A stretch of DNA of 21,251 nucleotides from Escherichia coli (GTDB lineage: Bacteria; Pseudomonadota; Gammaproteobacteria; Enterobacterales; Enterobacteriaceae), in the NCBI RefSeq assembly GCF_003334255.1, contig NZ_QOWU01000069.1; one strand, 5' to 3'. The notes beneath the pieces were generated by a model. That model saw only the letters and a program-made list of their open reading frames with translations. It was not told the origin of the DNA and ran no database searches. This document shows, piece after piece, positions 5,671-6,516 of this stretch. Made by a program: the position numbers and the translations under genes. How positions within the stretch are numbered: the first letter of the stretch is position 1; each line of letters opens with the position of its first letter.

Positions 5671-6516
5671 ATGGAACATGTTCCTGTTGTTGCAGGACTT
5701 ATCATGAGGATGCGCTATCCGGAAGGCAGGGCCTGGATTGGTGGTCCGGCATTATATGCAGCAACAGGAATGCGTTTAATGGGCATCAGATCGCGGATGA
5801 TGGCGGCATTAAGTCACGACCTGAGTGAGGATGAGCGCTCTGTCATCGAGCTGGTCTCCTGCGATGATCGTTGCATAACGTTGCTTAATAGCCCTTCCCT
5901 GAACTGGTACAGCGAAAACGTGCTTGGCAACAAAGGGAATGGCAGGCTTGATGGCATGCCCGCAGTCTGGAAAAGTGAAAAAAATTTCAGCCTGCTGAAT
6001 GGTGCCGTAACGGTGCTGGCGAATGGCGATCCCGCCTGGTATTACCCGCTTTTAACCAAAACGCAGCCCCGGTTGACGCTGATGGACTTCAATATGAACT
6101 GGTTAGCCGTCAGAGGTGAAGAGCTGCGACAGTGTATCCGTTATGCGGATATTATTACCATCACCCGGCATGAGTATCACTCGCTGGGAAAACATTTTTT
6201 CGCCACCTTTCTTGCGCAAAAGAACAAATTTCTTTTAGTGAAAGCGGGGAGTCATGGAACTGAATTCATTTCCGCTGGGGAGAGAGAATTACTGCCGCCC
6301 GCGAAGCCACAAACGGTGACGATGGATGTCGGTTGTGGCGATCTGCTGATTGGTTTACTGGCTGGCTATCTCTCCGGACAATTGACGCGATCTGACGCAC
6401 TGGCCTTTCAGCAGGTAAAAGCAGGCTATCTTGCTGCACTTCCCTGGATTGCCACTCTGCTGGAGTCTGCCAGCAATGAATCCTTTATCCGGAGGTGCGT
6501 TAATGCGTTCCGGTAA
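5671..6516 (+). CDS. Ribokinase-like (PfkB-superfamily) kinase
   Basis: 281 aa; AAGGAA ribosome-binding site; N-terminal GG dipeptide region (RAWIGGPALYAATGMRLMG) and C-terminal anion-hole-like motif DVGCGDLLIGLLAGYLSG (compare DTxGAGD of the PfkB family). Confidence 0.55.
   Translation: MEHVPVVAGLIMRMRYPEGRAWIGGPALYAATGMRLMGIRSRMMAALSHDLSEDERSVIELVSCDDRCITLLNSPSLNWYSENVLGNKGNGRLDGMPAVWKSEKNFSLLNGAVTVLANGDPAWYYPLLTKTQPRLTLMDFNMNWLAVRGEELRQCIRYADIITITRHEYHSLGKHFFATFLAQKNKFLLVKAGSHGTEFISAGERELLPPAKPQTVTMDVGCGDLLIGLLAGYLSGQLTRSDALAFQQVKAGYLAALPWIATLLESASNESFIRRCVNAFR

Follow-up and report, generated by a model that had tools for sequence, protein, structure and literature searches.

The gene at positions 5671-6516 (plus strand) of a 21,251-nucleotide (nt) stretch of Escherichia coli DNA (contig NZ_QOWU01000069.1 of assembly GCF_003334255.1; the whole stretch is called the window below) encodes a divergent member of the PfkB family. 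The textbook members of this family are carbohydrate and nucleoside kinases. The protein described here is encoded within a cassette of type II fatty acid synthase- or polyketide synthase-like (FAS/PKS-like) genes; it has kept the phosphoryl-transfer motifs of the family and has lost the sugar ligands. We propose that it is an active kinase which phosphorylates a non-sugar hydroxyl group of an intermediate or product of this pathway, and we give this reading a probability of roughly 0.45. That the phosphate would be placed specifically on the acyl chain is a more specific and rather doubtful extension of the proposal.

Taken as a single sequence, the protein matches the Pfam model PfkB (PF00294) with an E-value of 6.3e-6 (26 bits), and only over residues 119-246. 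The NCBIfam models for ribokinase (TIGR02152), IolC (TIGR04382) and a nucleoside kinase (NF041164) score 20.9, 20.2 and 19.3 bits, respectively (E about 1e-4), and none of them passes its cut-off of 299.65, 300 and 450 bits. With every match at about 20 bits, a subfamily assignment on the basis of NCBIfam was discarded. Profile and structure comparisons are much clearer. A profile built from 14 family sequences aligns along almost its entire length with the PDB entries 3kd6 (E 3e-9) and 2c49 (E 1e-6). The alignment of 51 subfamily sequences was compared by hhalign with a PfkB alignment seeded with E. coli ribokinase (RbsK), the seed being confirmed as identical to 1RKD/1GQT, and gave a probability of 99.9-100% with E-values of 1.5e-32 in local and 2.1e-41 in global mode. 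The AlphaFold2 model of the protein has a predicted local distance difference test (pLDDT) score of 85.3 and a predicted template modelling score (pTM) of 0.89; among its best 50 Foldseek matches in the PDB there are only PfkB kinases, with E-values of about 1e-13 and template modelling scores of 0.60-0.78. The AFDB50 collection, which holds only three clusters of the kinase family itself, returns these first and then ribokinase-superfamily kinases at 15-21% identity, which are mostly named 'sugar kinase', with adenosine kinase, hydroxymethylpyrimidine (HMP) kinase and HldE also among the names. Once profiles and the predicted structure are used, the model and the matches unambiguously indicate a PfkB fold.

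The correspondence of individual residues was taken from the global hhalign mapping and from the columns of the 51 subfamily sequences (23-80% identity). The anion hole and the catalytic Asp lie in D219-V-G221-C-G223-D224 (6325-6342), where G221-D224 take the positions of RbsK A252-A253-G254-D255. G223 and D224 are invariant in the 51 sequences, including those that are 23-39% identical to the query, and G221, K191, G193, G196, T165 and G25-P26 are each conserved to at least 90%. The nucleotide-phosphate loop K191-A-G193-S-H-G196 (6241-6258) corresponds to RbsK T223-L-G225-S-R-G228, and its residues K191, G193 and G196 reach 96-100% conservation. The counterpart of the NXXE Mg/phosphate motif, T165-R-H-E168 (6163-6174), aligns with RbsK N187-E-T-E190; the Asn has become Thr165 (90% conserved), and the acidic residue is retained as Glu or Asp. 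The N-terminal GG motif is part of G24-G25-P26 (5740-5748), in which G24-G25 (5740-5745) match RbsK G41-G42 and P26 stands for RbsK K43. Of this stretch, the wider subfamily conserves only G25-P26, to about 96-98%. A preliminary description of this gene had proposed a ribokinase-superfamily kinase from a GG region and a DVGCGD motif. Both elements are present and align with RbsK G41-G42 and T250-D255, and the fold is borne out by the AlphaFold2 model, Foldseek, the profile matches and hhalign; neither a different fold nor a loss of the catalytic Asp and anion hole was found.

The sugar side of the active site has been replaced. All five RbsK ligands of the ribose hydroxyls are exchanged in the hhalign mapping: N14 for M12, D16 for M14, K43 for P26, N46 for Y29 and E143 for G119. 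The first two fall within M12-R13-M14 (5704-5712), with Met at both ligand positions. Among the sugar ligands, Asp16 is the near-universal hallmark of PfkB carbohydrate kinases; in none of the 51 aligned members does this column hold an acidic residue, and it is mostly hydrophobic or aromatic with a few Gln, His, Thr or Ser. The nearest PfkB branch, that of 3kd6, retains the Asp16 equivalent. G119 is part of N118-G119-D120-P121 (6022-6033; LANGDPxWY), which belongs to the signature of the subfamily, LANxDPxWY together with D139, W144 and Y253. The N.DP element of this signature is common to the subfamily and the 3kd6-type PfkB proteins. Since it fails the curated cut-offs as well as the sugar-ligand pattern, we regard the protein as a divergent PfkB-family member and not as a sugar kinase. 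RefSeq annotates exactly the same open reading frame (ORF) as WP_016232769.1, 'PfkB family carbohydrate kinase'. The PfkB assignment by itself is thus already present in public annotation; the label is misleading for this subfamily.

The gene is a genuine one. The ORF encodes 281 amino acids, starts with ATG at 5671 and ends with TAA at 6514-6516, a Shine-Dalgarno sequence (AAGGA) is found 7 nt 5' of the start, and the stop of the preceding gene (5665-5667) leaves a spacing of 3 nt. Compared with the orthologue in Pectobacterium, the rates of non-synonymous (dN 0.118) and synonymous substitution (dS 0.732) give a dN/dS of 0.16, which demonstrates purifying selection.

Thirteen genes, most of them overlapping, run in the same direction here, and the kinase gene is number six. 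The first five encode a short-chain dehydrogenase/reductase (SDR) of the ketoreductase (KR) type, an acyl carrier protein (ACP), a dehydratase (DH), a beta-ketoacyl synthase (KS) and a KS-fold protein resembling a chain-length factor (CLF). The gene downstream encodes a membrane protein with a FeeM-type N-acyl amino acid synthase domain. The neighbours are therefore those which had been named in the preliminary description, a KS-like gene upstream, here CLF-like and free of a conserved Cys, and an acyltransferase gene downstream. That the stop of the kinase gene overlaps the next start is likewise true, the overlap being 14 nt from the ATG at 6503, which is preceded by GGAGG at 6491-6495, or 41 nt from the ATG at 6476 chosen by PGAP; the TAATG junction at 6514-6518 is out of frame for the FeeM gene. 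An identical 14-nt overlap occurs in Pectobacterium and Herbaspirillum, and the FeeM gene probably starts at ATG 6503 rather than at 6476.

Genomic contexts were collected mostly with the kinase as bait, and a search with the CLF-like protein was added as an independent sample. In every kinase-bait context with enough DNA we observe the order SDR-ACP-DH-KS-CLF-PfkB, in clusters with a GC (guanine plus cytosine) content of 31-62%. The gene order of the window is also found in the chromosome of Pectobacterium (L002, L003) and in Herbaspirillum (L004, L010, L011), as well as in four assemblies listed as L005-L007 (kinase bait) and four more (L018-L021) that were found with the CLF-like bait. By the latter search, the kinase is present in 4 of 5 independent, i.e., non-identical, clusters of the FeeM type. 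Identities of 80, 51 and 37% for the kinase against 82, 57 and 34% for the CLF-like protein show that the kinase co-diverges with its neighbours. Because the GC content of the clusters spans 31% to 62%, the KS-CLF/ACP/KR/DH/kinase cassette is considered old and widely dispersed.

Distant members of 26-34% identity (L008, L009, L014, L015) occur in minimal clusters, which keep the six-gene core and lack both FeeM and the exporter. There, the gene 3' of the kinase encodes a soluble protein of about 207 amino acids with an invariant His35/Asp73/GxS159G triad (L014 10849-11475; L015 4525-5145; L009 10827-11450; L008 2578-3216). It matches no curated family; Pfam Trypsin_2 is hit in one of the four (7e-4), and all weak PDB profile matches have the chymotrypsin fold. 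The idea that this gene represents the transmembrane (TM) domain of the FeeM protein was ruled out, as its translation gives the soluble triad protein. The trypsin-like protein may serve as off-loading enzyme in place of FeeM. In both cluster types the last 7-17 nt of the kinase gene are shared with the gene that follows. Because the kinase is kept where the trypsin-like protein replaces FeeM and the exporter, we tie it to the acyl-ACP module and not to a head group.

Implementing these observations, we propose the following scheme, in which activity and substrate are both deduced from sequence. The KR, ACP, dehydratase, KS and CLF-like protein would form an uncharacterised type II FAS/PKS-like builder of acyl chains, and the kinase would be its dedicated, translationally coupled tailoring enzyme. 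It would phosphorylate a non-carbohydrate hydroxyl; the site we favour is on the acyl chain, for instance the 3-hydroxyl produced by the KR, with the chain still on the ACP or just released. On the plasmid discussed below, the acyl product would then be passed to the membrane-anchored FeeM-type N-acyl amino acid synthase, and the final product would be exported by the Lol/MacB-like ABC system. A still narrower version, in which the PfkB-fold kinase acts on a 3-hydroxy or enol acyl intermediate (on the ACP or newly released) and the phosphate is either kept or used as a leaving group, is speculative and, in our judgement, improbable. If the phosphate is kept, a phosphorylated lipoamino acid would be sent to the outer membrane or the exterior. 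If it serves as leaving group, phosphorylation followed by elimination would yield an unusual double bond, or a decarboxylative release by FeeM or the trypsin-like enzyme. Should the protein act on a hydroxyl of an acyl chain or lipoamino acid, this would bring lipid or polyketide tailoring into the PfkB family and give type II FAS/PKS-like pathways a phosphorylation step. The product of the cluster could be an envelope lipid that faces the host or competitors.

Several points weigh against an active tailoring kinase. The single-sequence match to Pfam PfkB is weak and partial. With the Asn of NXXE being Thr and RbsK K43 being Pro, activity could be impaired, and the substrate pocket, its shape and hydrophobicity included, is read from the sequence alignment alone. 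The cassette already has a dehydratase and some clusters a crotonase, such that a phosphate is not evidently required by the chemistry, and no phosphatase, phosphate lyase or other phosphoester-handling enzyme is found beside the kinase in any context. Finally, one FeeM-type cluster (L017; JAESGK010000005.1, a 1.08-Mb contig with a GC content of 60%) is otherwise complete and has no PfkB-like ORF. It comprises genes for SDR, ACP, DH, KS, CLF-like protein, TM-FeeM protein, TPR protein, ABC ATPase, permease, LolA-like carrier and outer-membrane protein, and within 6001-8411 only 120 nt separate the stop of the CLF-like gene (6945) from the FeeM ATG (7065). The kinase is hence near-universal yet dispensable for the cluster product in that lineage, although it could be encoded elsewhere in that genome. 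A tailoring role of the kinase fits with its absence from this cluster.

The changed NXXE Asn and K43, together with the weak PfkB match and the lost substrate ligands, would also be explained by a non-catalytic PfkB-like protein that serves the KS-CLF/ACP machinery as nucleotide-binding scaffold or as regulator. FLN1 and FLN2, fructokinase-like proteins of plant plastids, offer an analogy, and the tight, conserved placement beside the CLF-like gene would suit a subunit of a complex. However, the catalytic Asp and its preceding Gly are invariant, and the whole anion hole and the nucleotide loop stay at 90% conservation or more even among members of 23-39% identity. Because of this pattern, catalysis is expected rather than a scaffold, and for an obligate subunit the absence from L017 would be surprising. 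We consider a scaffold unlikely.

The preliminary description took the presence of the kinase to suggest that a phosphorylated precursor, be it a sugar, a nucleoside or a head group, takes part in the assembly of the product. An ordinary kinase for carbohydrates or nucleosides, supplying a phosphorylated polar precursor that becomes part of the product, for example as a head group, is in line with the PfkB fold and motifs, with the deposition of the nearest solved relatives 3kd6, 2c49 and 4u7x as nucleoside kinases or fructokinases, and with the names given by PGAP and IMG ('carbohydrate kinase', 'sugar/nucleoside kinase'). Our results do not bear the suggestion out and make it rather improbable: the replacement of all five RbsK ribose ligands with an Asp16 column that is never acidic, as well as the scores of about 20 bits against curated cut-offs of 300-450, both speak against it. 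Moreover, genes for glycosyltransferases, nucleotidyltransferases or sugar modification are absent from all of the approximately 13 cluster contexts examined, and the kinase stays with KS and CLF where the amide synthase and the exporter are absent.

The latter observation also bears on the amino-acid part of the FeeM product as substrate. Phosphorylation of a Ser, Thr, Tyr or homoserine hydroxyl would yield a phospho-lipoamino acid for export. In all kinase-bearing FeeM-type clusters, the gene lies directly upstream of the FeeM gene with the 14-nt overlap, and the motif takes a form particular to the FeeM-type clade, DVGCGD instead of D[VI]GAGD. A phosphate would presumably also suit an amphiphile handled by a Lol-like exporter. 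Since the kinase occupies the same position in the four FeeM-less clusters, however, where its constant partners are only KS, CLF, ACP, KR and DH, we think it improbable that the amino-acid part is the target. A passenger gene or annotation artefact unrelated to the cluster, which the mosaic of insertion sequence (IS) and transposon (Tn) fragments on the plasmid might suggest, is effectively excluded by the position kept in Pectobacterium, Herbaspirillum and many metagenomic contigs of 31-62% GC, by the dN/dS of 0.16, and by the ribosome binding site and 3-nt spacing to the upstream stop.

The subfamily to which the kinase belongs is small and was previously without a name. A word-indexed search of 5.8 billion proteins returned 14 clusters of homologues, with identities of 79-80% in Pectobacterium parvum and P. 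brasiliense, 51-92% in other assemblies and 36-38% in a group with Herbaspirillum. Its repetition with a 47-sequence profile gave no homologues beyond those of the first search. When 1.84 billion representatives were searched exhaustively with HMMER, 90 sequences reached an E-value of 1e-3 or lower, 52 of them 1e-10 or lower and 8 of them 1e-30 or lower; a profile scan of genome contigs with the kinase alignment found only two Herbaspirillum genomes. In their sources the members are named 'hypothetical' or 'sugar/nucleoside kinase'. One distant member (P0019; JGI 3300056388, a 7.9-kb contig) carries a C-terminal ferredoxin fusion (Fer4_13) and is directly followed by an acyl-ACP-desaturase-like gene (FA_desaturase_2), a second and different link to acyl-chain chemistry.

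The other genes of the cluster, all on the plus strand, are assigned as follows. The first core gene (1964-2689; PGAP start 1970) encodes an SDR/3-oxoacyl-ACP reductase-like protein with an NCBIfam FabG-type match of E 1e-59, below the equivalog cut-off. It is followed by the ACP (2780-3055; NCBIfam E 7e-10 and annotation) and a FabZ/ApeP-like 3-hydroxyacyl-ACP dehydratase (3039-3527; NCBIfam FabZ E 2e-15, Pfam ApeP-like on the orthologues). The KS (3520-4716; PRK09185 E 2e-51) has the active-site motifs AACATS (Cys), HGTGT (His) and GHTMGASG (His). The CLF-like protein (4729-5667), directly upstream of the kinase, has no Pfam or NCBIfam match when searched alone; profile matches to the KS chain 9s5h_C (E 4.7e-7) and to FabH structures indicate the KS fold. 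Because no Cys is conserved at any column of its family alignment, the KS nucleophile is absent from this protein.

Downstream of the kinase, the gene at 6503-7837 encodes a protein with about six TM segments, as judged from hydropathy, and a C-terminal FeeM-type N-acyl amino acid synthase domain (PF21926, E 6.9e-8, residues 235-356), which the name given by PGAP also reflects. A secreted TPR-like protein (7834-8496), recognised by a signal peptide in the translation and faint TPR matches, precedes a LolD/MacB-type ABC ATPase (8493-9158; NCBIfam LolD E 6e-63 and DarD E 4.5e-63, both below cut-offs) and a LolC/E- or MacB-type FtsX permease (9155-10369; lolCE E 1e-35, Pfam MacB_PCD and FtsX on the orthologues). 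The next gene encodes a periplasmic LolA-like (TP_0789-like) carrier of lipids or lipoproteins (10366-11109; Pfam TP_0789-like on the orthologues, LolA3 E 2e-6). Its ATG at 10366 overlaps the permease stop as ATGA and yields the signal peptide MKKLLTIFLLLLLFPTASVTA, which the PGAP start at 10465 removes; the orthologues are called at 247 amino acids, and 10366 is probably the true start. A secreted protein of 399 amino acids (11131-12330), without family match, keeps its position in all FeeM-type clusters and is a putative outer-membrane component. The last, accessory gene (12333-13166) encodes a crotonase-family protein related to the diffusible signal factor (DSF) synthase RpfF: it scores 219.6 bits with NF006452 (cut-off 177) and matches RpfF with E 1.3e-45, below cut-off. 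E. coli, Pectobacterium (L003) and L005 have this gene, and the Herbaspirillum cluster lacks it. The crotonase may act as dehydratase or thioesterase on 3-hydroxyacyl-ACP. A scan for promoters and terminators within the cluster stayed at background level and was not used, with one exception: a strong, intrinsic-terminator-like hairpin at 1610-1632 (9-bp stem with 6 GC pairs, T-run) after a DUF6622 membrane-protein gene (1028-1573). Because of this hairpin, the DUF6622 gene and the cluster starting at 1964 are probably separate transcription units.

The window is 100% identical to part of a 99.8-kb plasmid of E. coli G6/7 and G8 (NZ_CP060062.1, NZ_CP060058.1), two of the six strains in the probiotic Symbioflor 2 (PMC4358396). 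The region is carried by 2 of 5426 complete E. coli genomes, and an identical copy of the cluster was found with the CLF-like bait on a 29.5-kb contig of a metagenome assembly (L016). Debris of mobile elements bounds the cluster, with IS66, IS110 and Tn3 upstream (1-1900) and a frameshifted IS4, an IS66 fragment and a Tn3 fragment downstream (13088-21251). These borders, together with the 81% nucleotide identity of the kinase gene to its chromosomal orthologue in Pectobacterium, suggest a Pectobacteriaceae-like donor from which the cluster island was acquired. Further genes in the downstream part of the window encode a GNAT protein, a serine acetyltransferase, a ProQ/FinO protein and the YacA/YacB toxin-antitoxin pair. 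The cluster is thus rare, mobile, being IS-flanked and plasmid-borne, and resides in two strains of a marketed probiotic.

Some further observations concern the distant clusters. A role in defence was discarded, as PADLOC models match none of the 10 cluster proteins tested. A Gabija-like pair (OLD-like TOPRIM ATPase and UvrD-type helicase) is located at 10167-13824 of L015, about 5 kb from the minimal cluster; this is a single observation and may be coincidental. In the low-GC minimal cluster of L009, a protein of 271 amino acids with a weak ATP-grasp-like match (AccC, E 1.4e-3) is encoded directly upstream of the SDR gene (5669-6484) and has no counterpart in the window.

Full-text literature searches for PfkB or ribokinase together with N-acyl amino acid synthase, or with ketosynthase or polyketide and ACP, found no description of such a cluster. 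Those for FeeM with ketosynthase, ABC and LolA, and for N-acyl amino acid synthases in Pectobacterium, returned nothing relevant, and a review of Symbioflor does not mention the cluster. Within these searches the cluster is undescribed, and the earlier remark that a ribokinase-like kinase is unusual in an FAS/PKS-like operon holds as far as they reach.

Among known systems, the aryl-polyene (APE) clusters are similar in their biosynthetic part. They encode a KS-CLF pair (ApeO-ApeC), a KR (ApeQ), dehydratases (ApeI/ApeP), ACPs (ApeE/F) as well as LolA-like and membrane export genes (PMC8358021, PMC8253772). Likewise, the window cluster comprises a KS with a Cys-less CLF-like partner, an SDR ketoreductase, an ApeP-like dehydratase, a discrete ACP and a LolA-like export component, and lacks an enoyl reductase. 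In contrast to APE clusters, neither the thirteen window genes nor the orthologous clusters include an ApeH-type adenylating starter enzyme, a methyltransferase, a thioesterase, a glycosyltransferase/LPLAT pair or an MMPL exporter; instead, the window has the PfkB-like kinase, the TM-FeeM amide synthase and a MacB/LolCDE-like ABC transporter. APE clusters are not known to contain a kinase. The Fee-type clusters (FeeM with the ACP FeeL; PF21926) share with the window a FeeM domain beside a dedicated ACP and genes for building acyl chains. In our case, however, FeeM is fused to a domain of about 190 amino acids with six TM segments, and is preceded by the KS-CLF cassette and the PfkB-like kinase.

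With respect to the kinase itself, the alpha/beta fold with a small beta lid is common to PfkB kinases such as RbsK (1RKD) and the proteins of Chlorobium tepidum (3KD6) and M. jannaschii (MJ0406, 2C49), as are the GG motif, the x-x-G-x-x-G nucleotide loop, the acidic residue of NXXE and the G-x-G-D anion hole with its Asp. The 'N.DP' and 'D....W' elements are shared with the 3KD6-type branch. In contrast to these kinases, the protein has all sugar-hydroxyl ligands replaced and a Thr in place of the NXXE Asn. Its nucleotide loop contains a conserved Lys (K191), the D-x-x-G-A-G-D motif is spaced more tightly by one residue, and the context is acyl-ACP chemistry instead of sugar or nucleoside metabolism.

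For the more speculative route by elimination, there are two precedents. In the sulfotransferase-thioesterase pair of CurM, a hydroxyl is activated to a leaving group and a terminal olefin is formed. The ATP/ADP-dependent NAD(P)HX dehydratase of the ribokinase superfamily (YjeF C-terminal domain) couples phosphorylation with subsequent elimination. The likeness is one of function only, as the CurM sulfotransferase has no sequence relationship to the kinase, and the YjeF domain has no PfkB lid and is classified in another Pfam family. What the three systems would have in common is the activation of a secondary hydroxyl, here possibly on or near the acyl-ACP and directly before the off-loading enzyme.

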